32,000 nucleotides of DNA from positions 299,709 to 331,708 of the forward strand of contig DVEG01000020.1 in NCBI GenBank assembly GCA_015295835.1, given 5' to 3'. The stretch comes from Oscillatoriaceae cyanobacterium M7585_C2015_266 (GTDB lineage: Bacteria; Cyanobacteriota; Cyanobacteriia; Cyanobacteriales; Oscillatoriaceae). Positions 4,081 through 29,010 of the stretch are shown piece by piece. The notes under the pieces were generated by a model that saw only the letters and a program-made list of their open reading frames with translations, searched no databases and was not told where the DNA came from. A program made the translations under genes and the position numbers. The stretch's first letter is position 1. Each line of letters opens with the position of its first letter.

Positions 4081-6348
4081 ATGAATCCAGTTGCAACAAC
4101 TTGTTCTTATAATGTCGAACTTCCCGATTGGCTGGAAAATTGCTTGCAATCCCAAAATGAAACATTAGACACAAAAGAAAATTTTGCTTCCCCGGCAGAT
4201 AAATCATTAATCTGTAGAGCATTTGATTTTGCATATAATTTGCATGAAGGACAGGTTCGGAAATCTGGAGAACCCTATATTTGCCATCCGATCGCAGTAG
4301 CAGGGTTACTGCGAGATCTTGGCGGCAATAGCACAATGATAGCGGCAGGCTTACTACACGATGTCGTTGAAGATACCAACGTTACACTAGAAGAACTAGA
4401 AGAGCGGTTTGGTTACGAGGTGCGGCTACTGGTAGAAGGTGTTACCAAACTCTCGAAAATTAAGTTTTCTAGCAAAACCGAGCGTCAAGCAGAAAGCTTC
4501 CGCCGCTTGTTCCTAGCAATGGCTCAAGATATTCGGGTAATCGTAGTCAAGCTGGCAGATCGCTTACATAACATGCGCACGCTAGAACACCTGCCCGAGG
4601 AGAAGCGCCGTCAAATTGCTCTGGAAACGCGAGAAATCTTTGCACCTTTGGCCAATCGTCTGGGGATCGGTAGCTTTAAATGGGAATTAGAAGATTTAGC
4701 GTTTAAATATTTAGAACCCGAAGCCTACCGCCAGATACAGGAGTTGGTGGCAGAAAAACGTTCCGCTCGGGAAGCGCAGTTAGCAGAAATAGCTGCAACC
4801 CTCAGACAACGTATAGAAAAAGCTAACATTCGCTGTATAGATGTCAGCGGGCGTCCCAAGCACTTATATGGTATTTATCAAAAGATGCAGCGACAAAACA
4901 AAGAATTTCACGAAATATATGATGTAGCTGCAGTACGGATTATAGTTGAAACAAAAGAAGAATGCTATCGCGCTTTGGCGATCGTACATGACCTCTACCG
5001 CCCTATCCCAGGTCGATTTAAGGATTATATCGGTTTACCAAAACCTAATAGATACCAATCTCTACATACCGTAGTGATCGGAAATACAGGGCGCCCTGTC
5101 GAAGTACAGATTCGCACCCTGGAAATGCACCATATTGCTGAGTACGGAATTGCCGCTCATTGGAAGTACAAAGAAACTGGTTCCTCGAATCATACTCAGA
5201 TGTCTGATATTGAGGAAAAATTCACTTGGCTACGGCAGCTTTTGGATTGGCAAAGCGATCTCAAAGATGCTCAGGAATATATGGAGAGCATCAAAAATAA
5301 TTTATTTGAAGATGAAGTGTTTGTTTTTACTCCGAAAGGAGATGTGATAGCCTTGGCACGAGGGGCAACGCCGGTGGATTTTGCCTATCGCATTCATACA
5401 GAAGTAGGTAATCACTGTGCCGGGGCGCGGGTGAATGATCGCATGGTGCCTTTGGATACGCCGCTGAAAAATGGCGATATTGTGGAAATTTACACCCATA
5501 AAAACAGTCACCCAAGTTTGGATTGGTTGAATTTTGTGGTGACAACGGGAGCGCGCAACCGGATTCGTCAGTGGTATAAGCGATCGCACCGTGAGGAAAA
5601 TATAGAACGGGGTCGCAGTTTACTGGAAAAAGAATTGGGCAAAAATGGCTTTGAAGCTTTGCTGAAGTCGGAACAGATGCAAAAAGTTGCCGAACGCTCT
5701 AATTACCATAGCGTCGAAGACTTGCTTGCTGCACTGGGTTACGGCGAGATAACTCTCAACCAAGTCGTTCACCGCTTGCGTGATGTCGTCAAATCTACTC
5801 AGGCAGTAGCCTTGCTCCCAGAAACGCCTCCCCTACCAACAGAAGCAGCTCGCACCTTTCGGCAATCCCCACAAGTTTCTACTTCAACAAAATCTCCGAT
5901 CGCTGGTGTCGAAGGTTTATTATATCATTTGGCTGGTTGTTGTCACCCAATCCCCGGCGAACCGATTATCGGTGTCGTTACCCGCAGCAGTCGCGGCATT
6001 TCTATTCACCGACAGGGATGTCCTAATCTGGAAACAGTACAGGGCGAGCGCTTAGTGCCAGTGAGTTGGAATCCCATTGATGAAGACGGGCGTCCTCAAA
6101 CTTACCCGGTTGAGGTGCAAATCGAAGCTATTGACAGGGTGGGGGTTCTCAATGACATTCTCTCCCGGCTCAAAGATAATAATATTAATGTACGCAGCGC
6201 GCAAGTCAAAACTTACCCTGGTTTACCAGCTCTGATTCAATTGTGTATTGATGTACGCGATCGCGCGCAACTTGATCGCACCTTCTCCCAGATTAAAAAG
6301 ATGAGCGACATCCTCAATATGCGACGTCTCAATCCAGTCGATGAATAA
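4081..6348 (+). CDS. spoT: Bifunctional (p)ppGpp synthetase/hydrolase RelA/SpoT
   Basis: 755 aa. HD hydrolase domain (HPIAVA...LLHDVVEDT), RelA/SpoT synthetase region (GRPKHLYGIYQKM...YDVAAVRIIV...YQSLHT), TGS (VFTPKGDVIALARGATPVDFAY) and a C-terminal ACT-like domain. Confidence 0.95.
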   Translation: MNPVATTCSYNVELPDWLENCLQSQNETLDTKENFASPADKSLICRAFDFAYNLHEGQVRKSGEPYICHPIAVAGLLRDLGGNSTMIAAGLLHDVVEDTNVTLEELEERFGYEVRLLVEGVTKLSKIKFSSKTERQAESFRRLFLAMAQDIRVIVVKLADRLHNMRTLEHLPEEKRRQIALETREIFAPLANRLGIGSFKWELEDLAFKYLEPEAYRQIQELVAEKRSAREAQLAEIAATLRQRIEKANIRCIDVSGRPKHLYGIYQKMQRQNKEFHEIYDVAAVRIIVETKEECYRALAIVHDLYRPIPGRFKDYIGLPKPNRYQSLHTVVIGNTGRPVEVQIRTLEMHHIAEYGIAAHWKYKETGSSNHTQMSDIEEKFTWLRQLLDWQSDLKDAQEYMESIKNNLFEDEVFVFTPKGDVIALARGATPVDFAYRIHTEVGNHCAGARVNDRMVPLDTPLKNGDIVEIYTHKNSHPSLDWLNFVVTTGARNRIRQWYKRSHREENIERGRSLLEKELGKNGFEALLKSEQMQKVAERSNYHSVEDLLAALGYGEITLNQVVHRLRDVVKSTQAVALLPETPPLPTEAARTFRQSPQVSTSTKSPIAGVEGLLYHLAGCCHPIPGEPIIGVVTRSSRGISIHRQGCPNLETVQGERLVPVSWNPIDEDGRPQTYPVEVQIEAIDRVGVLNDILSRLKDNNINVRSAQVKTYPGLPALIQLCIDVRDRAQLDRTFSQIKKMSDILNMRRLNPVDE

Positions 6349-6973: not shown

Positions 6974-7774
6974 ATGCCAAACACCTATCCTAAAAAACTT
7001 CTAGTATCCCTCGCCGCCCTTTTCTTGGCTCTGTGTGTTTGGGCACAAGCCCCCGTCGCCCACGCCTACGACAATCCTGAGCTACTCCCAGACACTCAAA
7101 CTAATGTCATCGACTTGGCAAAATCCCTAACAGACATTCAGGAAGAAATGCTTAACAAAGACTTGCAGCAATTTGAAGCCGAAACCGGCTACAAGCTGCG
7201 AGTTTTAACCCAATACGATAGAACCCCAGGAAGGGCAGTAAAAAAATTCTGGGACTTGGATAACAAAAGTGTTCTCCTCGTTGCCGATCCGCGCGGCGGC
7301 AATATTCTTAATTTTAACGTCGGCGACGATTTGTACTCGCTACTGCCTCGCACCTTCTGGGTAGAATTGCAAACACGCTTTGGCAATCAATTCTTTGTCC
7401 GAGAACAAGGTGAAGACCAAGCTATTATTCAATCTTTAGAATCTGTTAAAACTTGTTTACGTCAAGGCGGTTGCCGCGTCGTACCCGGATTGCCAAGAGA
7501 GCAGTGGATTCTCACCCTGATTACTTCTGTTATCGGCGGCATTGTGTTTGGATTCGCTGCCCAACCCCGCGATGGAAAAGCGTTTGCATGGCAATGGGCG
7601 CTTATTTTCTCTCCCCTGTGGGGGATTTTATTTCTCGCTTTCGGTATAGGACCTGTTATTAGCCGCACAAACGATTGGCTACCTTTATTCCGCAATATTA
7701 TTGGGTTCGTTATGGGTGCGCTAGTAGCCTACCTGACGCCGATTATTAGTCAATCTTCTGCATCTGAAACTTAA
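6974..7774 (+). CDS. TPM-domain protein (Psb32/TLP18.3-like) with a C-terminal membrane anchor region
   Basis: N-terminal signal peptide (LALCVWAQAPVAHA), a TPM-like core (VIDLAKSLTD...ETGYKLRVLTQ...LLVADPRGGN) and hydrophobic C-terminal helices. Confidence 0.7.
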   Translation: MPNTYPKKLLVSLAALFLALCVWAQAPVAHAYDNPELLPDTQTNVIDLAKSLTDIQEEMLNKDLQQFEAETGYKLRVLTQYDRTPGRAVKKFWDLDNKSVLLVADPRGGNILNFNVGDDLYSLLPRTFWVELQTRFGNQFFVREQGEDQAIIQSLESVKTCLRQGGCRVVPGLPREQWILTLITSVIGGIVFGFAAQPRDGKAFAWQWALIFSPLWGILFLAFGIGPVISRTNDWLPLFRNIIGFVMGALVAYLTPIISQSSASET

Positions 7775-7787
7775 TATAGGGGTTTGT

Positions 7788-7822
7788 GTGGGAGCGCTCG
7801 CTCTTTTCCACCGCTCCCCCAC
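7788..7822. terminator. Imperfect hairpin between convergent genes
   Basis: GTGGGAGCG (7788-7796) pairs with CGCTCCCCCAC (7812-7822), leaving a 2-nt bulge. It lies between the stop codons at 7774 (+) and 7827 (-). Confidence 0.3.
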
Positions 7823-7826
7823 TTGT

Positions 7827-8828
7827 TTACACTTGCAAACTCAATTTCGGCGTAACAGGTATCCCAGGAACAGAAACAGGTTTTGTCTGCTGCACTATTC
7901 CTATCTGACTCAAGAAAAGACCTGCTAAAATCACACTGCCGCCAATTAATTGCGCAAAGTTCGGAATTTCACCTAAAATTAAATAAGCAGCTACTACCCC
8001 GGCAAGCGGTGTAAAACAACCAGCTAGAGAAATATCAGCGGCAGCAGAATTTTTAACGCCTGTAAACCAGCAAATTTGACCAAGCCCGAAAATTATTGGC
8101 CCTCCTAAGAACATCAACTGCCATAAATAAGGGGAAAAGGCATCTGATAAATGATGGTTGTCATATCCGGCTGCAATTAAGCAAAATGATACTGTGGTTC
8201 CTGCCACTGCCCTGGATACGCTGATCATGCCACTGGGAATCTGGCTGAGTTGTGTTTTGATGATTAAAGTCGCGCTGGCAAATGCGATCGCTGCCCCTAC
8301 GACTAATATTTCACCTTTACCTACATGGTAGAAAATTCCTGCACTCTCTGTTTGCAGGGCAGTAGTCAATCCCACCCCCGTGAAGGCGATCGCAGTTCCG
8401 ATAATTTGACAAATCGTAACTCTTTCTTTCAGCAACCATACTGAAAGCACTAACACTAATAGCGGCTCCAGTCGCCCTACTAATACTACATTTGCTACAG
8501 GCGTCATTGACAGGGCTTTGAAAACTAACAGCGGTGCGATCGCTCCATTTAAAAGCCCCACCGCTGCCAAGCATAACCACTCCCGCCTCCCTCGCTGTTT
8601 GAAAAAACTTATATCCCACTGTCGGCAGTATACTGCTATCATAAATATTAAAGCGCAGAAATTTCCCGCCAGCGAGATATTTAAATAAGAAATATGCTCT
8701 GCCCCCATTTCCGTCAGCCGCCTTACGAAGGCAGTAGACATGCCGAAAATAACAATGCCTAAAAATAAATATACAGGCCCCGGAATCTGTAATGCCCAAT
8801 TAGAGAAATTTGCCCTTCTGATTTCCAT
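7827..8828 (-). CDS. DMT-superfamily (EamA-type) transporter
   Basis: About 10 hydrophobic helices in the two-repeat organisation typical of EamA. ATG at 8828 is preferred over the TTG at 8843 used in the ORF track. Confidence 0.8.
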   Translation of the reverse strand: MEIRRANFSNWALQIPGPVYLFLGIVIFGMSTAFVRRLTEMGAEHISYLNISLAGNFCALIFMIAVYCRQWDISFFKQRGRREWLCLAAVGLLNGAIAPLLVFKALSMTPVANVVLVGRLEPLLVLVLSVWLLKERVTICQIIGTAIAFTGVGLTTALQTESAGIFYHVGKGEILVVGAAIAFASATLIIKTQLSQIPSGMISVSRAVAGTTVSFCLIAAGYDNHHLSDAFSPYLWQLMFLGGPIIFGLGQICWFTGVKNSAAADISLAGCFTPLAGVVAAYLILGEIPNFAQLIGGSVILAGLFLSQIGIVQQTKPVSVPGIPVTPKLSLQV

Positions 8829-9355
8829 CCCTGAACACCGCAATTAAAAATTTTTCATTTTATTTCCCAGAGAAAGTTTTGCCCCTGAATTCAGGAGCGC
8901 TCGCTGCCATCTTCTCTTTTCTACACGCAGCTTTGTGTAGAGGTTCGTGTATGTGAACCCCTGCGAATCCCTAACAGGCAATTACTTTGTCAATAACCTA
9001 GAGGCTATTTACAGCCTGAAAATCGCCAATAGCCGATTAGCTCCTTGAAAAATAATTGGCATTTTGGCCATTCTTTGGGGATTTTTAATATACAAACTTC
9101 TTGCCATCTCCGAAAGGAGAATATTTTTCTACCTCAATCGCATTGTAGCACGAAATTTATAAAAAAATTTCAAATTTTTCAGAAGTTTTTTTTGGGGGAA
9201 AAGAGGAGAGAGGGCCAAGGGCCAAACCGCTCTTTAACTCGACAGTTATTCTATGCCGGCGCTTTTGTAGATACGTAGTATGCAACCTTTCTGGCAATTT
9301 ACTTATAATTTACTTTTGTTTATTCACAGCGTGTCTATTTGCATTTAAGCAAAGA

Positions 9356-10249
9356 TTATCGAAAGCGAATTAATTGTTTTAACTCTTGCCACCACAGGAT
9401 TTTACCAGAGGTAGTTTGCTTGTTAATGAAAACGCCATTACTAGGGCTGAAAAAAAGCGCTAAAACAAAAAATCCCGACGTCACTAAAACGATCGCTGGT
9501 CCTGGAGGTATGTTATTATAGTAACTAATATACATGCCGCTGATACTGGAAATGATCCCGAAAATAGCTCCTAATATCATTACTTGATGCAAGCGGGGAA
9601 CTAACAAGTAAGCTGTTGCAGCTGGAGTAATTAATAAAGCTAACACAAGCACAACGCCAACGGCTTTCATGCTGGCAACGACGGTTAAAGCGATCAAAAC
9701 CATTAAACCAAAATTAAGCAGATTTACAGGCAATCCTGTAGCCTGGGCACCAAGAGGATCGAAGCTGTAAAATAATAGTTCTTTGTAAAGTAGTATTACG
9801 ACAAGCAAGACAAGTACGGAAATAATAGCAGTGTCGCGGACATCTTCGGGGAGAACACTAAGAATATTGCCGAATAAAAAATGATTGAGGTCAATTTTGT
9901 TGTCTTTCTGTATAATAGTAATTAAGGTAATGCCGAGGGCAAAAAAGGCAGAAAAAACAATGCCCATGGCAGCATCTTCTTTGATAGGCGAGCGCGTACG
10001 TATCCAAGCGATCGCAATCGTACTGAGGACGCCGGCAATAAAAGCACCAATAAAAATATTAGAATCTAACATAAAAGCGATCGCCAGCCCCGGCAGTACC
10101 GAGTGAGAAATCGCCTCTCCCAGAAGCGCTAAACGCTGTACCATTAAGTAACTGCCCACAACAGCGCAAGTCAAACCAACCAAAACCCCAATAGCAAGCG
10201 CTCGCTGTATAATTTCCGAATGCCACGGTTCCAGCAAAATTTGTAACAT
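9356..10249 (-). CDS. mntB: Metal (Mn/Zn) ABC transporter permease, cluster-9 type
   Basis: 297 aa polytopic protein with the ZnuB/MntB-like pattern. Immediately downstream of the cognate ATPase. Confidence 0.85.
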   Translation of the reverse strand: MLQILLEPWHSEIIQRALAIGVLVGLTCAVVGSYLMVQRLALLGEAISHSVLPGLAIAFMLDSNIFIGAFIAGVLSTIAIAWIRTRSPIKEDAAMGIVFSAFFALGITLITIIQKDNKIDLNHFLFGNILSVLPEDVRDTAIISVLVLLVVILLYKELLFYSFDPLGAQATGLPVNLLNFGLMVLIALTVVASMKAVGVVLVLALLITPAATAYLLVPRLHQVMILGAIFGIISSISGMYISYYNNIPPGPAIVLVTSGFFVLALFFSPSNGVFINKQTTSGKILWWQELKQLIRFR

Positions 10250-10262
10250 ATCAATTCAATCC

Positions 10263-11048
10263 TTAATATACTTTCTCAGAAAAAAACATTACTTGCCCGC
10301 CATAAGCGTTGTAGAGATTTTCTCGCGTTAGCACCTGCTGGCGCTTCCCAGTAGCGATAACTTCTTTATTCAGTAAAATTAAGTCGTCAAAGTAAGTAAT
10401 AGATTCTCCTAAATCGTGGTTGACAACAAGTACGATTTTGTCATCTGCCGCTAATTCGCGAAAAATTTTAAAAATGACATCTTGTGTTTTTTGATCGATA
10501 CCGACAAAAGGCTCATCAAAGCAAAAAATATCAGCTTCCTGCGCTAAAGCTCTAGCTAGAAACACCCGCTGTTGTTGCCCGCCAGAAAGTTCGCCAATAC
10601 GGCGAGCGCAATAGTCAAGCATCCCCACACGCTCCAATGCAGCAGCGGCAATTCGGCGACTCGTTGCAGAAAAACGCCGAAACCAGCCGGTTTTTCTCAC
10701 CCGCCCCATCATCACTACATCCCAAACCGTAGCGGGAAAACTCCAGTCAATTTGCGATCGCTGTGGAATATAAGCCACCCGCTGCAACTGGTTGTAAAGC
10801 GGCTGCCCAGCGTACAAAATCAACCCGCCCGTCGTAGGAATCAACCCCAGCATCGCCTTTAATAAAGTACTTTTACCTGCCCCATTAGGTCCAATAATCC
10901 CCGTCAGTCGCCCGCTGTAGATAGCACAACTCACATCTCGCAGTGCCTCTACATTGCGGTATCTCACTCCCAGGTGACTAATATTAATGCTTTGTTCCCC
11001 TTTTCCTGAATGGCAAAGAGCTTGGGGATAGAATAATTTAACCTTCAT
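10263..11048 (-). CDS. mntA: Metal (Mn/Zn) ABC transporter ATP-binding protein
   Basis: Walker A GPNGAGKST, signature LSGGQQQRV, Walker B IFCFDEPFVGID. Confidence 0.9.
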   Translation of the reverse strand: MKVKLFYPQALCHSGKGEQSINISHLGVRYRNVEALRDVSCAIYSGRLTGIIGPNGAGKSTLLKAMLGLIPTTGGLILYAGQPLYNQLQRVAYIPQRSQIDWSFPATVWDVVMMGRVRKTGWFRRFSATSRRIAAAALERVGMLDYCARRIGELSGGQQQRVFLARALAQEADIFCFDEPFVGIDQKTQDVIFKIFRELAADDKIVLVVNHDLGESITYFDDLILLNKEVIATGKRQQVLTRENLYNAYGGQVMFFSEKVY

Positions 11049-11144
11049 ATTTTCTTTTTCTAGTTGCTTTTTTTACAGCCTACCGCAAAAATGAAAACAA
11101 TATGAAAATTTTTATTAAAAAAAATAATAGTTAATATAAGGAAA

Positions 11145-11158
11145 AGTGATAGATCACT
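11145..11158. promoter_or_regulatory. Inverted repeat AGTGAT-AG-ATCACT in the divergent mntA/mntC intergenic region (candidate Fur/Zur-family operator)
   Basis: Perfect 6-2-6 palindrome 20 nt upstream of the mntC start, with TGAT/ATCA half-sites like Fur-family boxes. Confidence 0.3.
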
Positions 11159-11177
11159 AACTAAAAAACAGGCAGTG

Positions 11178-12158
11178 ATGAATGATCATAAAAATACCTC
11201 TAAAAACGGCAAAACCAGCACAGGGGGATACTTAGCAGTAGCGATCGCCCTTGGGCTGTGGTTGAGTGGGTGTATAACTGCAGCTAATAATCCCCAATCT
11301 CCCGAAAAACCCAAAGTCGTCGTTACCAATACCATTCTCCACAACCTTACTGAGCAGATAGCAAAAGACGAAATAAAACTCACCGGCATTCTCAAACCAG
11401 GAGCCGATCCCCACGTTTATGAACCCCTGCCCTCAGATAGCCTCGCCCTAGAAAAAGCTAACCTAATTTTGTATAATGGCTACAACCTGGAGGCTGGGCT
11501 AATCAAGCTGATAAAAGCAGCCGGCGTCAAAGCCAGGAAAGTAGCGGTAGGAGAAATCGTGCGCCCGCTACAAATGCAAAAAAATAACAAGAAAGTGCCC
11601 GATCCCCACGTTTGGGGCGATGTAAAAAATACCATTAAAATGGTTAAAGTAATCCAAGATGAGCTCTCGGCACTTTCCCCAGAAGATTCAAAGAAATTTA
11701 GCCAGAATGCAGCGCGACTGATAGACGAACTTACTCAATTGCATATATGGATTGGCCAACAAGTGGCCACTATTCCCCCGCATAAGCGTAAGCTGGTGAC
11801 AACTCACGATGCCTTTCAATATTATGCGCGGGCGTATGGATTAGAAGTAGTGGGAACCATTATCGGCATTAGTACCGAGGAGCAACCAAGTGCTCAGACT
11901 GTGCAACAATTGGTAAAGGCAATTCAAGCGACAGGGGTGCCGGCTATTTTTGCAGAAACGACGATAAATCCTGCTCTGATTTCAACAGTGGCGCGGGAAG
12001 CTAAGGTGAAGTTGGCGCCGCAACAACTCTATTCTGATTCGATTGGTGCGCCCAAGAGTGTGGCAGATTCTTATATTAAAATGATGGTGGCTAATACGCG
12101 CGCTATTGTAGAAGCGTTGGGCGGAAAGTATACTCCATTTGAGCTGAATAACTTGTAG
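11178..12158 (+). CDS. mntC: Metal (Mn/Zn) ABC transporter substrate-binding lipoprotein (TroA/cluster-9)
   Basis: Lipobox LWLSGC and two DPHV motifs (GADPHVYEP, PDPHVWGD). There is no His-rich loop, so a Mn-type protein is slightly favoured over ZnuA. Confidence 0.85.
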   Translation: MNDHKNTSKNGKTSTGGYLAVAIALGLWLSGCITAANNPQSPEKPKVVVTNTILHNLTEQIAKDEIKLTGILKPGADPHVYEPLPSDSLALEKANLILYNGYNLEAGLIKLIKAAGVKARKVAVGEIVRPLQMQKNNKKVPDPHVWGDVKNTIKMVKVIQDELSALSPEDSKKFSQNAARLIDELTQLHIWIGQQVATIPPHKRKLVTTHDAFQYYARAYGLEVVGTIIGISTEEQPSAQTVQQLVKAIQATGVPAIFAETTINPALISTVAREAKVKLAPQQLYSDSIGAPKSVADSYIKMMVANTRAIVEALGGKYTPFELNNL

Positions 12159-19553: not shown

Positions 19554-21764
19554 CTACGCGACTCGATAAATAAAACTGAGCGTAGCGTAAGCTGCTACAT
19601 CCAATGCATAAGCATCTGCTGAAACTCCTGCTATTTGTGCTTTTGGTGCACTTGCTTGGTGCAAGTCTTGCAAAAGAGCCTGAGCAACGGCTAAAGGATT
19701 AGACAAAAGGATAATAGACTGCCCATCTGAGCAGGGGCGAAGATCTCCCGCTAGTGCAGTAAAGGTGCGTGAGAAGGGGGCAAGAGAACAGATAATATAA
19801 GTTTCTATTAGCCCGGTGGTGCCAGCACTATGGGCGGAAACAATTTCAACAGGGGGAATGGTTACAGTTTGCCCTGGGGCGATCGCTTTTGGCGGCAAAA
19901 ATGTTATTTTTTCAGCAGTAGTGCAAGTTTGCAAACATCCAGCAAGCGCCCGCCCCCGATTATCCAAACCCATTAGCAAGTAATAAATTAGCTTATCACT
20001 TTGATTGCTCAATCGATAATGAATACGACTGCCCGCTGGTAAATTAATAACCTGTAGCGCTTCTTCCCCCGCCAGTTTACTACCCCCGGTTGCACCACCA
20101 AAACGCAAGCTTCCTCGCTCTATCAGCACTCTTTCTTCACTACCTGCCATTACCTCCAGTTTTGCTACAATCCCCAACTGCGAAGAACCCTCATTCGCCG
20201 TTAAACGCCACAATTTCGCAGCTAACAGAGCGTATAACTGCGGTGCTAAACGGCGTACAGCCGCTTTGACGGCTTCTCCCCCTTCGCCAACTGTATCAGG
20301 AATTAAACTCTGACTAAGAGAAAATAAACCATAGCTGCTAGGAGCAAGGGAAGGCAAGGCAGATTTAGTAGCAAGCAGCGTCTCGCGAACACGCCCGAAA
20401 AAGCAATCAGCCGGCTGCTCCGAAGCTATCACGGAAGAAACGTAGGGAATCGTGGCAAAAGCACTTGTGGCATCCACCCGCTCTATGCGTTCGAGGGAAG
20501 TATCTAGGGCAACAGTCAAGTTGGGAGTGCGGGGCAGTACCCGCACACTTTCTCGAACTAATTGCCCCACCTGTAGGGGGAAAGTGGTAGCAATATCGGT
20601 ATTGAGTAGTTGTGCCTGGGCAGATAAACCACTACGCGAGCGAATCTGTAGCAGCACCCGTTGGCGTAGCAACTCCACAGGAGTATCATTAGCATTATGC
20701 ACGCTCAGTAAGGAATTCACCCCGTAAGAGTCTATTACCCTTATCGGTAATCCCCCTAGCCACACTTGCGCTGTTTTACCGTCTTCTGCTACTGCCGTTA
20801 CCGCGCCTTCTGCTGGCGGGCTAAAGTATAAATCTGGGAAAAGTATAGGGCTTTTTTGCTCAGATGACTGCCACTGGGGTTTCTGAATCGTGCCAGCTAG
20901 TTGCTCTACCATACAAATGGCGCGCTGAAAGCTGAATAAAAGCGATCGCGCAGGGGTTGCCCACCACAGGCTTTGAGTAAGAGCGTAAGTAAATACGCCA
21001 GCGCTAAATCCGCTCCATACCATCTCGGTAGCAGCTTTTTCAGGGCTAGCTGCTGTCAGGAAAACTCCGTGCCATTTTCCCCCCCTGGAGTTTTCTATAT
21101 CATTATAGTTATTAAGATAGCTGTTTTGGAGAGCTAGTAATTTTTGTTCAGTTAGTAAACTAGGGCGAGAGCGAATCCGTAAATTCCCCTGAATGGAGGT
21201 GCCGGGATAGCTGTAGCCAGCATCGATGACAATCAGCACTCTCTGCAGCGAGCGTAGCAACCGCCACAGTGTTTCTTCTAGCAAGTCATTAACAGCAATC
21301 CCATCCGTACCAATAAAACTGTCAAAGGGCACAAGCGAATTGATATCATCGGCAGACTCAGCATCTGCTGCTCGCACTGTATACAAACGACGACCATATC
21401 CGCTAAAATGAAAAACTACTAGATCGTCTTCTTTTGCTTGTGCAATTAAATGCGTTTGTAAAGCCTCTTCAATATTCTGGCGAGTGGCTTGGCTATCTGT
21501 GAGGGTGACAATATCCTGTGCCTGAAAGCCAAACCGATACATTAACAATTCCCGTTGCAATTCTACATCTGTCACACATCCAGCAAGGTTGCCACCCCCT
21601 CCATACTGGTTTATGCCCACTAGCAGCGCTAACTTGCGCCTCGAAGGCTCTGCTAAAACGCTTATGGCGCGCTCGCTCCAATGCCACAATAGCGTCTCAC
21701 TGATTCCAATAGACGCTAGTAAGCCTCCAGCTCGTTGCAAAAATTCCCGCCGTTTCAGTCTCAT
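19554..21764 (-). CDS. Caspase-fold (peptidase C14) pseudo-orthocaspase with a Tat signal and a large uncharacterised C-terminal region
   Basis: Twin-arginine motif KRREFLQRAGGLLASIG. p20-like core KLALLVGINQY...LAGCVTDV...LVVFHFSGYG...LIVIDAGYSYPG. Tyr123 sits at the catalytic His position, and there is no Cys in the DxCHSG-equivalent segment. Confidence 0.8.
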   Translation of the reverse strand: MRLKRREFLQRAGGLLASIGISETLLWHWSERAISVLAEPSRRKLALLVGINQYGGGGNLAGCVTDVELQRELLMYRFGFQAQDIVTLTDSQATRQNIEEALQTHLIAQAKEDDLVVFHFSGYGRRLYTVRAADAESADDINSLVPFDSFIGTDGIAVNDLLEETLWRLLRSLQRVLIVIDAGYSYPGTSIQGNLRIRSRPSLLTEQKLLALQNSYLNNYNDIENSRGGKWHGVFLTAASPEKAATEMVWSGFSAGVFTYALTQSLWWATPARSLLFSFQRAICMVEQLAGTIQKPQWQSSEQKSPILFPDLYFSPPAEGAVTAVAEDGKTAQVWLGGLPIRVIDSYGVNSLLSVHNANDTPVELLRQRVLLQIRSRSGLSAQAQLLNTDIATTFPLQVGQLVRESVRVLPRTPNLTVALDTSLERIERVDATSAFATIPYVSSVIASEQPADCFFGRVRETLLATKSALPSLAPSSYGLFSLSQSLIPDTVGEGGEAVKAAVRRLAPQLYALLAAKLWRLTANEGSSQLGIVAKLEVMAGSEERVLIERGSLRFGGATGGSKLAGEEALQVINLPAGSRIHYRLSNQSDKLIYYLLMGLDNRGRALAGCLQTCTTAEKITFLPPKAIAPGQTVTIPPVEIVSAHSAGTTGLIETYIICSLAPFSRTFTALAGDLRPCSDGQSIILLSNPLAVAQALLQDLHQASAPKAQIAGVSADAYALDVAAYATLSFIYRVA

Positions 21765-22033
21765 GAAATTCTTCCTAGTTTCCCTATTTTATTTTAAATT
21801 CTTTGGTGACTCTCTGTAGCCCCCCTATCTTTACTCACGCTCTGTCATCCCTCTACAGAATGATTTAAATATTTTTTCAGATGTTAGTTTGGCTTTGGCA
21901 CTAAAATAATTTTAAGTAGCGATCGCTACTAGATGGGGGAGATTTTTTGGCCTTCGCTTCTTGGAAGATTAAGGAATTTAAACCATTCGGGATTTGAGAT
22001 TTGATAAACTAAGTGAAGAGCCTCTAAATTTTT

Positions 22034-23752
22034 CTAAAATCCTAAATCGTATTTGGCAGATTCTGCCGCTTTTAGTACAGTCTCAGTTGGCATGTTTTCC
22101 CAGTCTGTATCAGCTATATCCTGATAAAATTTTTCGTCATATGGGCGAGTCTGTATAACAACTGGCATCGGTACGGCATGCCCAAGAATTAGAGCTTGTT
22201 GTTTGGAATCTAGTTTGGCTAAAACTGAGCGCAGGCTTTGCCCCCCTGAAACGCCTGTGAAAATAGCATCTATGTCTTTCTCGTCATTAAGCAGAGCAGT
22301 GATGCGGGTGCCAATTTGAGACATAACTTCGTTATCAATTCCTGATGGGCGCTGATCGACAATTAATAATGTGACAAAATATTTGCGCATTTCTCTTGCA
22401 ATTGTGCCGAAAATTGTTGATCGCACTGTCGCCGGATCAAGAAATCTGTGTGCTTCTTCTATAGTAATTAATAACTGTCGCGGGCGATCGCTTGGATTTT
22501 TCGTCTGCAAAAATCTCTCTGTTTTTTGTACATAACTACTGTGAATCCGCCGAGAAATCATATTCGTCGCTAGCATATAAGAAAGCATGTTCGCCTGCGA
22601 GCCAAACTCTATAACAACATGTTTCCCTGCATCCAGCGATTCTAAAATTTGACCTATATAATTTTTCGGACTCGTATTGCGCATGTACTTTAAATCGTCT
22701 AAACGCATTAATTTCCGCTGTAAGGCAATAATCGATGCTTTATTCCCCCTTTTCTCATCGCAAAAGTCTTGAATTTCTTCATTTCCCATATTCAGCAATT
22801 GCGTAATCCACGATTTCCCGTATTCGTTGCGCAGGATAATCGCATTTTCGATCGCTGCATCAGAAAGATTTAGCTCCTTCTGTACAAGGGCAATATCTTC
22901 TACTTCTATTTGATCATAACTAAGATATAATTCCTGAGCATCACGCACACCCCGACGTCTAGTAGAAGCCGGATCAAGAGTATAAATCTCTACTTGACTG
23001 GGAAATAATTGCCGCAACCCTTTAACCATATTTAGTTGTTTGCCTTCCGTCGTAGCTTCCCAGCCATACTCCGAGTGCATATCAAAAATTAAATTCACTG
23101 CTGCCTGTTTTTTAATTACCCCAGATAGCAGTAAACGCGTTAAAAAAGATTTACCAGTTCCCGATTTGCCGAAAATACCGTTGCTGCGCTCAACAAACCG
23201 ATCGAGATCTATGCACACCGGCACATCCATATCCAAAGGCTTACCGATCGCAAAATTACGGCGGTGGGGATCATCTTCCCAGCCAAATACCAAACGGAAA
23301 TCTCTTTCGGTAGCATCGAAAACTTGCGAGAAATGTCGGGGAATAGTTTTTACCGGCATCAACGTTGATTTCTCGCTGACTGCAAATGTCTCTCCTTTCT
23401 GTGTTTTTGCCCCTCTGCCAGTAGCAAAATTAACAGCTACAGGTTTTTCTTCAGGCTCAGGAGTGAGCATCAGCATCGGCATTAAGCTGATAGTGCCGTA
23501 AGTGCCGCTGCCGGCAAGTACTGCTTGCATAAACTCGTCTTCTGGCAATGGTGGATTAGCAAGAATGCGCTCGCTAGAAGTTCCCAAGCAAACGTCAGTA
23601 AGCATACAAAAGAAATGCGCTCGCTCTCCCCGTACAACCATAAATTTACCCACTCGCATATCTTCCACCGAAACGTCAGGATGCAATCGCACTTCTAATC
23701 CTTGACTTAGAGAACCTTGTATCACAGAACCTAAGGGCTTCTCCGATTTCAT
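22034..23752 (-). CDS. HerA/FtsK-like ATPase (DUF87-type)
   Basis: N-terminal barrel-like region (GSVIQGSLSQGLEVRL...VGKFMVVRG...FFCMLTDV), Walker A GIFGKSGTGKS (about 23147-23179) and Walker B-like LLITIEEAHRFL. Confidence 0.8.
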   Translation of the reverse strand: MKSEKPLGSVIQGSLSQGLEVRLHPDVSVEDMRVGKFMVVRGERAHFFCMLTDVCLGTSSERILANPPLPEDEFMQAVLAGSGTYGTISLMPMLMLTPEPEEKPVAVNFATGRGAKTQKGETFAVSEKSTLMPVKTIPRHFSQVFDATERDFRLVFGWEDDPHRRNFAIGKPLDMDVPVCIDLDRFVERSNGIFGKSGTGKSFLTRLLLSGVIKKQAAVNLIFDMHSEYGWEATTEGKQLNMVKGLRQLFPSQVEIYTLDPASTRRRGVRDAQELYLSYDQIEVEDIALVQKELNLSDAAIENAIILRNEYGKSWITQLLNMGNEEIQDFCDEKRGNKASIIALQRKLMRLDDLKYMRNTSPKNYIGQILESLDAGKHVVIEFGSQANMLSYMLATNMISRRIHSSYVQKTERFLQTKNPSDRPRQLLITIEEAHRFLDPATVRSTIFGTIAREMRKYFVTLLIVDQRPSGIDNEVMSQIGTRITALLNDEKDIDAIFTGVSGGQSLRSVLAKLDSKQQALILGHAVPMPVVIQTRPYDEKFYQDIADTDWENMPTETVLKAAESAKYDLGF

Positions 23753-24665: not shown

Positions 24666-24696
24666 TAAAAGCTAACCGTAATAAATCAAACTTAAA

Positions 24697-24880
24697 CTAG
24701 AGTGGACAAACTACAATAGGTTTCGCGACAGGGGACACCCTTGAAACCTTGAAACCTGATTCGCTCACCTCTTTCTTTATCCCCTCCTGTTTAACTCTAT
24801 CGTTTGAAGATATTTTACACTTCTGTTGGTGTCCGATCTTAACTTAGCACACCTGCAATCAATTGACAAGTAGATTTTAC
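24697..24880. ncRNA. Structured RNA-like element, copy 1 (unclassified)
   Basis: Shares ordered blocks with copy 2: CTAGAGTGGACA (24697-24708), a hairpin AGGTTTC/GAAACCT (24718-24724 / 24743-24749) presenting CGACAGGGGACACC in its loop, TCCTGTTTAACT, GGTGTCC (24828-24834, complementary to loop GGACACC 24733-24739), AACTTAGCA, and TTGACAAGTAGATTTTAC (24863-24880). Strand is unresolved; plus is favoured by the flanking -10 box and terminator. Confidence 0.4.
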
Positions 24881-24944
24881 TAAACTTAATAATTTATTAA
24901 GTAATTTAAGATTTAATCTTTTCACTACTCAACACTTTATCTCC

Positions 24945-24988: not shown

Positions 24989-25039
24989 CATAAGTAAGGA
25001 CTGAAAAAGAAGATAAAATAAAAAATTGATACTCTACAA

Positions 25040-25295
25040 CTAGGGTGGACAGTTCGCAGCTTAGCCTTATTTTTTACCGTACTCTCTTTTCTCCGACTTG
25101 CGGTTTGGCTTTGTTCAGAGAACTGAACGTTTGGCCACTTTTTCTTAGCGGTATCGGGTTCGCTGCATCTGGACTTTCGACAGGAGACACCAGGTCTAAG
25201 TCCTACTCTTTAACTGATTGATAACTGACTATTTAGTTTTTCGGTGTCTGATATCAAACTAGCATGCTATACCCTAGCTGACAAGTAATCTTTAC
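25040..25295. ncRNA. Structured RNA-like element, copy 2 (unclassified; possibly part of the rtcB leader)
   Basis: Same block order as copy 1: CTAGGGTGGACA (25040-25051), then an extra segment of about 110 nt closed by GCAGC/GCTGC that contains the hairpin GTTCAG-AGAA-CTGAAC (25112-25127). Next comes the hairpin GGACTT/AAGTCC (25171-25176 / 25198-25203) with loop CGACAGGAGACACC, then TCCTACTCTTTAACT, GGTGTCT (25243-25249, complementary to loop AGACACC 25185-25191), AACTAGCA, and CTGACAAGTAATCTTTAC (25278-25295). Confidence 0.4.
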
Positions 25296-25486
25296 AATAT
25301 TTTTTATTTTGTAAATTAAGTTAATATATAAGCAAGTAGCCAGGATTGGGGGATTAGAGGATGGGAAAAAAGCAGGTAGAAGTCGCAAAAACAATTATCC
25401 TGGTAGGAAAAATACAAGATAAAAAAAGAATTTCTCGTGCTATGATAGCCTAAAGGCAGCAAAAAAAAAAGTAAGGAAAAGATAAA

Positions 25487-26947
25487 ATGGCTAAAATAGA
25501 AGTTTTGGAACGAATTTCCGATACGGTTTGGGAAATACCAATTTCCTACAAAAAAGGAATGCAAGTGCCTGCACGAATCTATGGCACAGAAAAATTGATC
25601 CGAGAAATGGATGATGCCGTTTATGATCAAATAACAAACGTAGCCACACTTCCAGGAATTACTAAATATGCTCTGTGTATGCCAGATGGTCACTTTGGCT
25701 ATGGATTTCCCATCGGCGGAGTAGCTGCAATGGATGTAGAAAATGGGGGCGTTATCTCACCAGGCGGAATAGGATTTGATATCAATTGCGGTATGCGTTT
25801 GGTGGTGACTAATTTAACCTATGATGACGTCAAACCATATATTAAACAATTGGTAGATCGACTTTATGAAAGAGTGCCGGCAGGAGTTGGCAGTAAGGGA
25901 TTCGTGAAACTGTCACCAATGGAATTTCGTAAAGTCATGGAAAAAGGAGCTCGCTGGTGCGTGGAAAATGATTATGGCTGGGAAGAAGATTTGGAAATGA
26001 CCGAGGAAAATGGATGTATTAAAGGAGCCGATGCCTCGACAATTAGCGAAAAAGCGATCGAACGCGGTTTCAATCAAATCGGAACCCTGGGTTCGGGAAA
26101 CCATTACTTGGAAATTCAAGTGGCAAAACCAGAAAATATTTTTGATCGCTCCTTGGCTGAAAAAATGGGTATTACTATCCCTAATCAAGTCGTGGTAATG
26201 TTCCACTGCGGGAGCCGGGGATTTGGTCATCAAGTGGCCACCGATTACCTGCAAGTTTTCCTAAAAGTCATGGAAAGCAAATATGGAATTAAAATATTAG
26301 ATAGAGAATTAGCCTGCGCCCCCTTTTACTCTCCCGAAGGGCAAGCTTATTTTGCAGCTATGAAGTGCGGGCTGAATATGTCTTTTGCTAATCGGCAAGT
26401 AATTTTACACCGCATCCGAGAAGTGTTTTCGGAAATATTCGGGCGCTCACCAGAAGATATGAATATGCGAATGGTTTATGATGTTGCACATAATACTGCT
26501 AAATTAGAAAGTCATATTATTGATGGAAAAGAGCGATCGCTACTCGTCCACCGCAAAGGAGCAACACGAGCATTCGCCCCAGGAATGTCAGGAATTCCGG
26601 AAAAATACAAATCAATCGGACAGCCAGTTATTATTGGCGGCAGTATGGAAACCGGCTCTTATTTATTAGCAGGTGTACCCGGAGGAGCAGAAACATTCTT
26701 TAGCACCGCCCACGGCAGCGGGAGAACTATGAGTCGCACAAAAGCACGAAAAACTTGGCGCGGCGAAAAACTACAAAAAGATTTAGAAAACAAAGGAATT
26801 TACGTTCGCGCAACCTCTTGGAGCGGATTGGCAGAAGAAGCAGGCTCCGCCTACAAAAATATCGATGACGTAATCGCAGCCGCTGAATTAGCAGGAATTA
26901 GCAAAAGAGTGGTGCGGTTTACACCAATTGGAAATATCAAAGGATAA
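25487..26947 (+). CDS. rtcB: RNA 3'-phosphate/2',3'-cyclic phosphate--5'-OH ligase RtcB (archaeal/eukaryal HSPC117 type)
   Basis: 486 aa. Contains LPGITKYALCMPDGHFGYGFPIGGVAAMD, GGIGFDINCGMRL, GSGNHYLE, HCGSRGFGHQ and the guanylylated-His region TAHGSGRTMSR. Collinear with Pyrococcus-type RtcB as I recall it. Confidence 0.95.
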   Translation: MAKIEVLERISDTVWEIPISYKKGMQVPARIYGTEKLIREMDDAVYDQITNVATLPGITKYALCMPDGHFGYGFPIGGVAAMDVENGGVISPGGIGFDINCGMRLVVTNLTYDDVKPYIKQLVDRLYERVPAGVGSKGFVKLSPMEFRKVMEKGARWCVENDYGWEEDLEMTEENGCIKGADASTISEKAIERGFNQIGTLGSGNHYLEIQVAKPENIFDRSLAEKMGITIPNQVVVMFHCGSRGFGHQVATDYLQVFLKVMESKYGIKILDRELACAPFYSPEGQAYFAAMKCGLNMSFANRQVILHRIREVFSEIFGRSPEDMNMRMVYDVAHNTAKLESHIIDGKERSLLVHRKGATRAFAPGMSGIPEKYKSIGQPVIIGGSMETGSYLLAGVPGGAETFFSTAHGSGRTMSRTKARKTWRGEKLQKDLENKGIYVRATSWSGLAEEAGSAYKNIDDVIAAAELAGISKRVVRFTPIGNIKG

Positions 26948-26950
26948 ACT

Positions 26951-27832
26951 ATGCCACGCACACCACTGACTATAATAACAGGACCTCTCGGAAGCGGAAA
27001 AACAACCCTACTACGCCATATTTTAGATAGTTTTCCCAAAAAAATCGCTATCTTGATGAATGAATTTGGCGAAATCGCAATCGACAGCAAAATTATCGCC
27101 GGCAAAAACGTACAAATGGCTGAACTCGGCGGCGGTTGCGTCTGTTGTTCTCTCCTGGGAGAATTTGAAGCCGCTGTAAATGAAATTCTCGATACCATTG
27201 CTCCAGATAATCTGATCATAGAAACAACAGGCGTCGCCGAGCCAGACGCATTGGTATTTGATGCTCAAGAAAACTTGCCAAAAGTGCGACTAGATGGCGT
27301 GATAACAGTAATCGACGCCGATGCAATCGTAAAATATCCCAGCGTCGGGCACACAACACGAACGCAAATCGAAGCCGCCGACGCTATTCTATTAAATAAA
27401 ATAGATTTAGTATCAGAAAGCGAGTTAGAAGAAATCGCCCAAAAATTACAAAAATTTAATAAAACAGCAGAAATATTCCCCACCATACGCTGCCAAGTCG
27501 ATACCGAATTACTATTTGGCATCGGCAGGGAAAAAATAGAACAACCCCCTCACCATATTCACCAGCCAGAATTTGAATCCTTCGTTTATACGTCATCGGC
27601 AATAAGCGAGCGCACACGGTTCGAGGAATTTGCCAATAACATTCCCTCCAACATCTATCGAGCAAAAGGATTCATCCGATTTTCCGATGGAATCTATCTA
27701 TTTAATTTCGTCGCCGGGCGCTGGGATTTAGAGCAATTTCAACAACAAGCAACAGAATTAGTATTTATCGGTAAACAGGCAAAACAACGCCAAGCCGAAA
27801 TAATCGAACAATTAAAAAAATGCGAATACTAG
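26951..27832 (+). CDS. COG0523-family G3E GTPase (CobW/YjiA/ZigA-like putative metallochaperone)
   Basis: Walker A GPLGSGKTT (26981-27007), metal-binding GCVCC motif (Cys codons 27137-27148), ETTGVAEP, the NK.D motif in LLNKIDL, and a CobW_C-like C-terminal domain. The start codon is 3 nt after the rtcB stop. Confidence 0.9.
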   Translation: MPRTPLTIITGPLGSGKTTLLRHILDSFPKKIAILMNEFGEIAIDSKIIAGKNVQMAELGGGCVCCSLLGEFEAAVNEILDTIAPDNLIIETTGVAEPDALVFDAQENLPKVRLDGVITVIDADAIVKYPSVGHTTRTQIEAADAILLNKIDLVSESELEEIAQKLQKFNKTAEIFPTIRCQVDTELLFGIGREKIEQPPHHIHQPEFESFVYTSSAISERTRFEEFANNIPSNIYRAKGFIRFSDGIYLFNFVAGRWDLEQFQQQATELVFIGKQAKQRQAEIIEQLKKCEY

Positions 27833-27835
27833 CCT

Positions 27836-28267
27836 ATGCCTTACGAATTTCTAGAAGATACCGCCACCGCTGATATTGCTTTTCGCGCCTGGGGAAAAAA
27901 CCTAGAAGAATTATTCATCGCCGCCGGCGACGCCACAATAAACACAATGATCGATAATATCGATGCGATCGCACCCAAAGAAACCCGCACCTTCAACCTA
28001 GAAAATGACGACTTAGACATGCTACTATTTAACTTCCTACAAGAACTCATCTACTACAAAGATAGCGAACAGCTCCTACTCAGAGCACAACACATTAATA
28101 TTTCCCAAGAAAATAACAAACACCAACTCAAAGCCATCACAGCAGGAGAAACCCTGACTCCTGAAAAACACTCTCAGCGAGTAGATGTAAAAGCCGTTAC
28201 ATTACACCGCTTTCAACTAGAAAAAACCGCCAACGGTTGGGAGACTTTCATAATACTAGACATTTAA
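27836..28267 (+). CDS. Archease (RtcB activator)
   Basis: 143 aa. The N-terminal YEFLEDTATADIAFRAWGKNLEELFIAAGDA and the C-terminal VKAVTLHRFQL...ILDI match the archease pattern. The start codon is 3 nt after the GTPase stop. Confidence 0.88.
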   Translation: MPYEFLEDTATADIAFRAWGKNLEELFIAAGDATINTMIDNIDAIAPKETRTFNLENDDLDMLLFNFLQELIYYKDSEQLLLRAQHINISQENNKHQLKAITAGETLTPEKHSQRVDVKAVTLHRFQLEKTANGWETFIILDI

Positions 28268-28311: not shown

Positions 28312-29010
28312 ATGACATTTATTCTCACCAACGATGACGGAATTGACGCCCCCGGCTTGCACGCACTCCTAAAAGCCGTAAACGGCAAAGCCATTCTAAT
28401 TGCTCCCAAACAAGAATGCTCTGGTTGTAGTCATCGCGTCACGACAAAGGAAGGGATTCATGTCGAAAAACGCTCCCAAACCGCCTACGCTGTAGGTGGC
28501 ACCCCCGCAGATTGCATACGCCTAGCAATATCACATCTTTGCCCAGATGTAAAATGGGTGCTCTCTGGTATCAATTGGGGAGGAAATGTGGGAGTAGATA
28601 CTTATATCTCCGGTACGGTTGCCGCAGTGCGCGAAGCGGCTTTTCACGGCATTCCTGCGATCGCAATTTCCCATTATCGCAAAGGCAAACTAAATGTTGA
28701 TTGGGAACTAGCTGCCCACTGGGCAGCTATAGTACTAGATGAATTACTTAGTCGCCCCCTCGCACCCGGTAGCTTCTGGAATGTAAATCTGCCGCACCTG
28801 CTCCCCGGCGCTCCCGCTCCTCAGATAGTATTTTGCCCCCCCAGTAGGCAACCATTACCACTGAAATATCGGGTAGAAGGAGAATATTTTTATTATATCG
28901 GCGATTATGCCAGCCGTGAACGTGCTCCAGGCACCGATGTCGATGTCTGTTTTTCTGGTAATATTGCCGTCACCCAGTTGCGACTAGAGAGCGCTCGCTT
29001 CTTACTGTAA
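28312..29010 (+). CDS. surE: 5'/3'-nucleotidase SurE (short form)
   Basis: N-terminal ILTNDDGIDAPGL, GTPADC, SGINWGGNVG, SGTVAAVREAAFHGIPAIAIS, and the C-terminal TDVDVCFSGNIAVTQL. Confidence 0.88.
   Translation: MTFILTNDDGIDAPGLHALLKAVNGKAILIAPKQECSGCSHRVTTKEGIHVEKRSQTAYAVGGTPADCIRLAISHLCPDVKWVLSGINWGGNVGVDTYISGTVAAVREAAFHGIPAIAISHYRKGKLNVDWELAAHWAAIVLDELLSRPLAPGSFWNVNLPHLLPGAPAPQIVFCPPSRQPLPLKYRVEGEYFYYIGDYASRERAPGTDVDVCFSGNIAVTQLRLESARFLL

Follow-up and report, generated by a model that had tools for sequence, protein, structure and literature searches.

We analysed a 32,000-nucleotide (nt) stretch of the genome of Oscillatoriaceae cyanobacterium M7585_C2015_266 (contig DVEG01000020.1; hereafter, the window), in which a gene for the RNA ligase RtcB, a gene for a G3E GTPase of the COG0523 family and a gene for archease (the activator of RtcB guanylylation) follow one another directly. 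On balance, we favour reading these three genes as one RNA-ligation/repair module, in which the COG0523 protein would be a GTP-driven metal-handling factor working with archease. The trio is real, strongly conserved and, as far as the searchable literature shows, apparently undescribed as a combination, both of its parts being already known.

The three genes lie on one strand and in one shared reading frame, with the following features (protein lengths in amino acids, aa):

25487..26947, + strand: rtcB, 486 aa, 3'-phosphate/5'-hydroxyl RNA ligase, classified as archaeal/eukaryal type (PF01139, E 3e-168)
26948..26950, + strand: in-frame spacer of 3 nt that separates rtcB from the GTPase gene
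26951..27832, + strand: COG0523-family G3E GTPase, 293 aa (PF02492 and PF07683), assigned to a distinct subfamily linked to RtcB/archease
26981..27007, + strand: Walker A (P-loop) GPLGSGKTT, GTPase residues 11-19, invariant in the subfamily and its paralogs
27134..27148, + strand: GCVCC, GTPase residues 62-66, which holds the family-defining CxCC metal-binding motif
27659..27670, + strand: RAKG, GTPase residues 237-240, in the C-terminal domain, an invariant RxKG arginine-finger motif
27833..27835, + strand: in-frame spacer of 3 nt that separates the GTPase gene from archease
27836..28267, + strand: archease, 143 aa, activator of RtcB guanylylation (PF01951, E 1e-41)

The rtcB/GTPase junction (...GGATAAACTATG..., stop codon at 26945-26947, ATG at 26951) reads TAA-ACT-ATG and the GTPase/archease junction (...TACTAGCCTATG..., stop codon at 27830-27832, ATG at 27836) reads TAG-CCT-ATG; no terminator-like sites were found on the + strand within the three-gene unit. 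A cyanobacterial metagenome-assembled genome, Oscillatoriaceae bacterium SKW80, matches the window at 100% identity. The initial annotation of this DNA had placed the three open reading frames (ORFs) at exactly these coordinates, and all three of its family identities are borne out by Pfam. The 3-nt spacers from which it had argued for coupled expression are there in the window, but the gaps vary among relatives: their medians are 95 nt and 80 nt, and about a quarter of the loci have gaps of 3-10 nt. Tight translational coupling thus characterises the window and some of its relatives and does not extend to the module generally.

Conserved synteny and co-inheritance

A profile of the GTPase was run against one genome per GTDB species, and in the best 80 of 600 pattern matches the partner genes were sought by tblastn with the RtcB and archease of the window. 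By identity to the window GTPase these loci fall into two sets, 15 at 49-69% and 65 at 29-37%, with none between. Archease was recovered in 14 and RtcB in 12 of the 15 subfamily loci (the shortfalls being mostly contig ends), and not one of the 65 paralog loci carried either of them. The 15 subfamily loci are scattered over bacteria (the cyanobacterium Myxacorys, Verrucomicrobiota, Acidobacteriota, Gemmatimonadota, Latescibacterota, Tectomicrobia and Kerfeldbacteria) and DPANN archaea (Woesearchaeota, Aenigmatarchaeota and AR5). Direct look-up retrieved the same trio from Chroococcidiopsis, one Nostocales genome and another long contig, and the carriers include four cyanobacterial lineages; more than 120 cyanobacterial GTPase orthologs were found at >= 70% identity, 12 of which are consistent with a location on the same contig as one of the closest archease matches. 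The initial annotation had reasoned that a COG0523 gene seen beside rtcB only in this genome or a few close relatives would point to chance insertion; the neighbourhood recurs in at least seven bacterial phyla and in DPANN archaea, and it involves this subfamily only.

Wherever a partner was present in the 87 non-redundant subfamily loci, the genes ran RtcB, GTPase, archease on a common strand without exception; of the 46 loci that offered 1.7 kb or more of sequence upstream, 43 had RtcB. Such an arrangement is far beyond chance. The reverse test started from an archease profile built from this clade, which was run against metagenomes; 80 of the matching loci (54-73% identity) were kept, eight of which had too little upstream sequence, leaving 72 informative ones. 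A subfamily GTPase stood upstream of archease in 64 of these 72 loci, and in the remaining eight RtcB abuts archease directly, with no GTPase. As the GTPase-less loci are scattered over at least three places among the GTPase-carrying ones in the RtcB tree, and the archaeal trios branch at its base, the GTPase looks ancestral to the clade, with at least three separate losses. The three proteins have correlated matrices of pairwise identity (r = 0.93-0.95, Mantel p = 0.001), the pattern to be expected of a unit that is inherited and transferred together.

Fusions of the GTPase to archease

The two downstream members of the trio also occur as a single polypeptide. The first such protein seen (437 aa) consists of the GTPase followed in frame by a complete archease, and clustering at 90% identity gave at least 11 fusion clusters (436-452 aa; Pfam cobW, CobW_C and Archease), the members of which are 41-88% identical to the fusion query over its full length and recur on independent assemblies. 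RtcB lies directly upstream of the fusion gene in four of the five contexts. Because the fusion loci L167 and L168 sit in separate clades of the RtcB tree, at least two fusion events are indicated. The junction is a short variable linker in place of the stop codon, spacer and initiator Met, and loss of the GTPase stop codon from the in-frame layout seen in the window would give exactly this architecture. It is always the N-terminus of archease that is fused, and the C-terminal carboxylate (a metal ligand, PMC10944509) stays free. Considering these fusions, and that the pair is kept where RtcB is not adjacent (in loci L012 and L170 the GTPase is still beside or fused to archease), the closest partner of the GTPase is probably archease rather than RtcB. 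The synteny, co-inheritance and fusions, taken together, argue that the GTPase belongs functionally to the RtcB-archease system.

An apparent fusion of RtcB to a COG0523 protein (P0212) was discarded as a frameshifted assembly artefact with garbled internal sequence.

Locus L167 has two further features. A gene for a 627-aa Nramp-Usp fusion protein (7341-9224) begins 27 nt past the GTPase-archease fusion gene, and a divergent RtcA gene lies upstream of RtcB. The Nramp-family (Mn/Fe) transporter is a hint, from a single case, towards Mn or Fe.

The GTPase and its subfamily

The GTPase of the window matches PF02492 (cobW, 167 bits, E 4e-49, cut-off 20.7) and PF07683 (CobW_C, 55.4 bits, E 6e-15, cut-off 22), and the nearest solved structure is E. 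coli YjiA (E 2e-31). Its motifs are intact (GPLGSGKTT at residues 11-19, GCVCC at 62-66, ETTG at 91-94, NKID at 149-152 and RAKG at 237-240). Walker A, ETTG and NKID are invariant in 75 subfamily sequences and the three cysteines of the metal-binding motif (C63, C65 and C66) are 100% conserved in the subfamily alignment; the Walker A and GCVCC motifs noted in the initial annotation are both present and intact. Residues peculiar to the subfamily lie in and beside this motif (V64, S67, L68, E71, F72 and E73), and E78 is also subfamily-specific. The CxCC motif defines COG0523, and the motif RxKG is indispensable for GTP hydrolysis in ZigA and MigC (2026 preprint, PMC13001444). The CxCC sites of both these proteins form high-affinity Zn complexes, and the zinc bound by that of ZigA is regulatory for GTP hydrolysis (PMC13001444). 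More generally, the characterised members of COG0523 are metal-handling GTPases or metallochaperones, the clients of which are mostly unknown (PMC13001444; PMC2770081).

Judged by its sequence, the GTPase is a member of a distinct COG0523 subfamily. Identity to it is bimodal (49-91% within the subfamily, 29-37% or less for the nearest paralogs), no NCBIfam equivalog exists for the subfamily, and the protein scores below the cut-off of every named one, including CobW (TIGR02475, 128.9 bits, cut-off 332.1), ZigA (NF038288, 104 bits, cut-off 600) and YjiA-like proteins (PRK11537, 133 bits, cut-off 361). We rejected its identification as CobW, the cobalt chaperone of cobalamin synthesis, given the score under TIGR02475 and the lack of cobalamin genes adjoining the GTPase gene in the window; the database name 'cobalamin biosynthesis protein P47K' is likewise unsupported for the subfamily. 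Net charge and isoelectric point carried no signal that distinguishes the subfamily from the paralogs. Cyanobacteria have several COG0523 paralogs (loci L023-L086), and three more distant COG0523 proteins (P0203, P0237 and P0249; about 38% identical) bear an N-terminal extension of 120-310 residues.

RtcB and archease

The RtcB of the window is classified as archaeal/eukaryal, as the initial annotation had it: it aligns with P. horikoshii RtcB at 555 bits (E 1.7e-165) and with human RTCB at 426 bits (E 1.5e-126), and scores 143 bits against the E. coli-type model (cut-off 407). All its metal- and nucleotide-binding residues are present (D98, C101, H206, H240, H335 and H409, equivalent to human D119, C122, H227, H259, H353 and H428; roles from PMC10944509).

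The archease of the window matches PDB entries 4N2P and 8ODO and retains the residues of the metal site (D13, K119, D142 and the free C-terminal I143, equivalent to human D51, K156, D178 and I179 of the third metal site, PMC10944509), which are invariant in the clade alignment. Its N-terminal motif is EDTATAD (27836-27880) instead of the usual DHTAD. The archeases of the clade have EDxAxAD at this place, a form without the His and with two extra residues, from which the Woesearchaeota loci L019 and L020 depart. We considered whether this variant co-varies with the presence of the GTPase and rejected the idea: it is found in all eight GTPase-less loci as well, and is a trait of the clade.

The chemistry of the pair is known in some detail. 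The pre-activation RTCB-archease complex holds three Mn2+ ions (Gerber et al. 2024, PMC10944509), two of them at sites A and B on RTCB (Cys, His and Asp ligands) and one at site C on archease, where two Asp and the C-terminal carboxylate bind the metal and the site contacts the gamma-phosphate of GTP. Mn2+ activates RTCB, equimolar Zn2+ abolishes its guanylylation, and Zn was detected in crystals; whether archease arrives with a pre-bound metal was left undecided by the authors (PMC10944509). The binding of RTCB to archease is transient and depends on GTP and Mn2+, and RTCB binds archease and RNA in a mutually exclusive manner (PMC10944509). The PYROXD1 study (PMC12263435) describes the active-site cysteine of RTCB as prone to metal-induced oxidative inactivation.

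With regard to the substrate of the cyanobacterial ligase, we know of no protein-spliced tRNA intron in cyanobacteria on which RtcB could act.

Proposed function and its alternatives

The chemistry of RtcB and archease creates a need that a metal GTPase could serve, since there are three metal sites, Mn2+ activates and Zn2+ inhibits, and the pre-bound metal is undecided (PMC10944509). The data would best be explained if the GTPase delivered or selected metal for the RtcB-archease centre by way of archease. Within such a module, RtcB would be the ligase, archease the activator of guanylylation and the GTPase the metal-handling factor for their composite active centre. The GTP- and metal-bound GTPase would carry a divalent ion at its CxCC site and would dock on (or travel with) archease, whose acidic tip (D13 and D142 with the C-terminal carboxylate) provides the ligase with its third metal site; GTP hydrolysis through the RxKG arginine finger would then release or exchange the metal, and as an outcome the Cys/His/Asp sites of RtcB and the site on archease would hold the activating ion (Mn2+ in vitro) and not the inhibitory Zn2+. 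In this scheme we infer the GTPase activity and the binding of metal, as well as which metal is transferred and in which direction. In its most specific form, which we put forward tentatively and do not expect to be the likeliest outcome, this amounts to a GTP-powered metal relay, whereby the subfamily loads or edits the metal of the archease tip and archease carries it into the active centre of RtcB. The initial annotation had proposed a metal-loading or metal-selectivity factor for RtcB itself: the association with the RtcB system holds, the closest partner appears to be archease instead, and the metallochaperone role stays inferential. Its further rationale, that such a factor would matter in a cell that manages Mn tightly for photosystem II, fails as a general argument since most of the carriers are not phototrophs.

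Several points weigh against the metal-handling role that we favour. The CxCC site is thiolate-rich, with tight binding known for Zn, Co and Fe and a poor fit to Mn2+, which makes simple delivery of Mn2+ chemically questionable and gives real weight to alternatives based on Zn2+ capture or on a GTP switch. The RtcB proteins of P. horikoshii and human are active in vitro with archease and Mn2+ alone, and since two-gene operons are common and 8 of the 72 clade loci are without it, the GTPase must be an accessory and not a requirement. An AlphaFold2 model of a natural fusion (P0123, 86-sequence alignment) had a mean predicted local distance difference test (pLDDT) of 80 and a predicted template modelling score (pTM) of 0.57, with the CxCC loop and the linker below a pLDDT of 50, and no defined interface was predicted in it. 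The hints from transporter genes all come from single lineages. Moreover, raw locus counts overstate independence, as 31 metagenome loci with a common HtrA-like neighbour belong to one soil verrucomicrobial lineage; at >= 90% RtcB identity there are about 23 groups.

The thiolate problem disappears if the GTPase serves in metal proofreading or protection, its high-affinity site ridding the Cys/His sites of RtcB of Zn2+, which is inhibitory (or of redox-active Cu/Fe), or intercepting these ions, and thereby keeping the ligase competent for Mn2+, in parallel to the protection of metazoan RTCB by PYROXD1, although by other chemistry. The poisoning of guanylylation by equimolar Zn2+ and the Zn found in crystals (PMC10944509), the sensitivity of the active-site cysteine to metal-induced oxidation (PMC12263435) and the tight Zn complexes of the ZigA and MigC CxCC sites (PMC13001444) all agree with such a function. 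We nevertheless regard it as fairly unlikely: no COG0523 protein is known to take metal from a client, synteny and fusions do not tell the direction of transfer, and likely anaerobic groundwater archaea, for which oxidative protection is less relevant, are among the carriers. We judge it quite unlikely that the GTPase transfers no metal at all and acts as a GTP-dependent switch or assembly factor, which gates the access of archease to RtcB or, between ligation cycles, drives nucleotide exchange and the release of archease, the CxCC metal being structural or regulatory. The transient binding of archease and its mutual exclusion with RNA imply that cycling is needed (PMC10944509), the zinc at the CxCC site of ZigA is described as regulatory for GTP hydrolysis (PMC13001444), and a fusion to archease fits a built-in regulator; yet every COG0523 function characterised so far supplies a client with metal, archease needs no help to cycle in reconstituted systems, and the strict CxCC together with the flanking subfamily-specific acidic residues (E71, E73 and E78) suggests that the metal site matters.

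The comparative data bear harder on the other two explanations. The GTPase might be a general metal-homeostasis paralog with other clients, merely co-regulated with an RNA-repair stress operon and not interacting with its products, for which the several COG0523 paralogs of cyanobacteria (L023-L086) and the repeated loss of the GTPase without loss of RtcB-archease could be cited. We find this very improbable, given that the association is limited to one subfamily (0/65 paralog loci), that the order is invariant over bacterial and archaeal phyla, that the distance matrices correlate and that at least two independent in-frame fusions join the GTPase to archease. The chance of an accidental insertion or annotation artefact in this genome is practically negligible, as the same trio in dozens of independent lineages refutes it.

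Relation to known systems

The two-gene rtcB-archease operon (Desai et al. 2014, PMC3973293; PMC10944509) is established, also in the cyanobacterium Synechococcus JA-3-3Ab, and shares with the window the type of ligase and its activator, the catalytic and metal-binding residues and the adjacent, co-oriented genes. The trio differs from it in the COG0523 GTPase that stands between the two (elsewhere fused to archease) and in the EDxAxAD motif of archease in place of DHTAD. The GTPase in turn resembles the COG0523 chaperones with known or proposed clients, i.e. CobW (cobalt, B12), Nha3 (Fe-type nitrile hydratase), ZNG1 (zinc to METAP1) and ZigA/ZagA/YjiA/YeiR, in its two domains, Walker A, CxCC, ETTG, NKxD and C-terminal RxKG finger. 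Unlike in those cases, its implied client would be an enzyme system that acts on nucleic acid and depends on Mn in vitro.

Other G3E chaperones act via partners, UreG with UreE/F/D and HypB with HypA/SlyD, while MeaB is fused to its mutase client in IcmF. The likeness to UreG, HypB and MeaB/IcmF lies in the gene of a P-loop G3E GTPase beside those of a metalloenzyme and an adaptor, and in the natural fusion of partners; the difference is that the fused partner here is a small activator with a metal site of its own, and not the enzyme. No such relay is known to have been described for COG0523. With PYROXD1 (PMC12263435) the likeness is conceptual only, that of a dedicated accessory guarding the metal/cysteine centre of the ligase, and PYROXD1 is an unrelated flavoprotein of another mechanism.

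The E. coli-type Rtc system (the sigma-54 activator RtcR, RtcA and RtcB) is comparable as an RNA repair locus centred on RtcB, but the window is without RtcR or RtcA (none of the window ORFs scanned has an RTC or Sigma54_activat domain) and its RtcB is of the archaeal, archease-dependent type. The absence of both genes, noted in the initial annotation, is true of the window; among relatives, RtcA does join the cassette in loci L007, L116 and L167.

Neither RtcB nor archease is mentioned among the 15 COG0523 subfamilies of Haas et al. 2009 or in the supplements (PMC2770081). Among 8 million searchable full texts, the coverage of which leaves out the networks of Edmonds et al. 2021, no relevant paper linked RtcB or archease to COG0523 (nor RtcB to CobW, G3E or YjiA), in line with the earlier remark that no such partnership was known to have been described.

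For the COG0523 field, where the bottleneck is the finding of true client enzymes, comparative genomics and fusions here point to a specific client system, one for which crystal structures and simple assays of guanylylation and ligation in vitro are at hand; in passing, database names that mislead, 'cobalamin biosynthesis protein P47K' among them, are corrected for the subfamily. For the RtcB field, in which the identity and traffic of the metal are debated and Zn2+ poisons the enzyme, a dedicated metal GTPase makes these questions testable. If the metal relay were true, archease would be a metal-shuttling adaptor, the question of its pre-bound metal would be settled, and the subfamily would be the first COG0523 chaperone with a nucleic-acid enzyme as client and possibly the first tuned for Mn2+ over Zn2+.

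Genomic neighbourhood

No fourth conserved gene was found near the trio among 736 flanking ORFs (clustered and scanned with Pfam). Synteny beyond the three genes is lineage-specific only (HtrA, trehalose synthase, Cu/Zn superoxide dismutase and ribonucleotide reductase), and RtcA, Pterin_4a, Nramp, VIT1 and Tpt1 occur as sporadic neighbours. The trio was also rejected as a known anti-phage defence system, the PADLOC models giving a P-loop-level match only for the GTPase (E 3.6e-5) and no match for RtcB or archease. No Zur box was identified, no Zur model being applied, and no shared operator-like motif or promoter was detected upstream of rtcB in 10 loci. Neither the window nor the 890-nt gap upstream of rtcB gave a match when scanned for Rfam families and tRNAs.

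This AT-rich gap holds two degenerate copies of an element (24690-24935 and 25033-25335), with the common blocks AACTAGrGTGGACA, CGACAGGrGACACC, CCTnCTnTTTAACT, GGTGTCyGAT and TGACAAGTA...TTTAC; GACACC and GGTGTC could pair in both copies. The element, which has no Rfam match and is absent from the 170 loci compared, might be a small RNA or a repeat resembling miniature inverted-repeat transposable elements. A palindrome (TTTACAA-N11-TTGTAAA, 25291-25315) lies about 190 nt upstream of rtcB, and in L168 a related palindrome, TTTGTAAA/TTTACAA, stands about 186 nt upstream of the same gene; both could be due to chance in AT-rich DNA.

Downstream, and on the strand of the trio, a surE gene (5'/3'-nucleotidase, 28312-29010) begins 44 nt past archease and may be transcribed together with it in the window; none of the related loci has surE at this place. 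Farther away in the window (9356-12158, about 13 kb from the trio), divergent genes for an ABC-3 permease, an ATP-binding cassette (ABC) ATPase and a ZnuA-family binding protein make up a Zn- or Mn-type ABC importer, which is not conserved near the trio elsewhere. On the - strand (19554-23752), 1.7 kb upstream of rtcB, the gene of a HerA-like ATPase (HAS-barrel and DUF87, with a PADLOC HerA match) adjoins that of a 736-aa caspase-domain protein, and the two may be a defence-type pair.

Among relatives, the Chroococcidiopsis locus (L002) has a sulfotransferase gene between rtcB and the GTPase gene (5219-5977) and a gene for the RNA 2'-phosphotransferase Tpt1/KptA 0.9 kb downstream of archease (8173-8718). 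In both L014 and L017 (one Latescibacterota and one Gemmatimonadota genome) the trio is followed on the same strand by genes for a MobA-like NTP transferase and Pterin_4a, next to which comes a glutaredoxin gene in L014. The RtcB of archaeon GW2011_AR5 (L016, 3397-6306) is 969 aa long, with a central insertion consistent with an intein, and LAGLIDADG domains are found there in three flanking or inserted ORFs.

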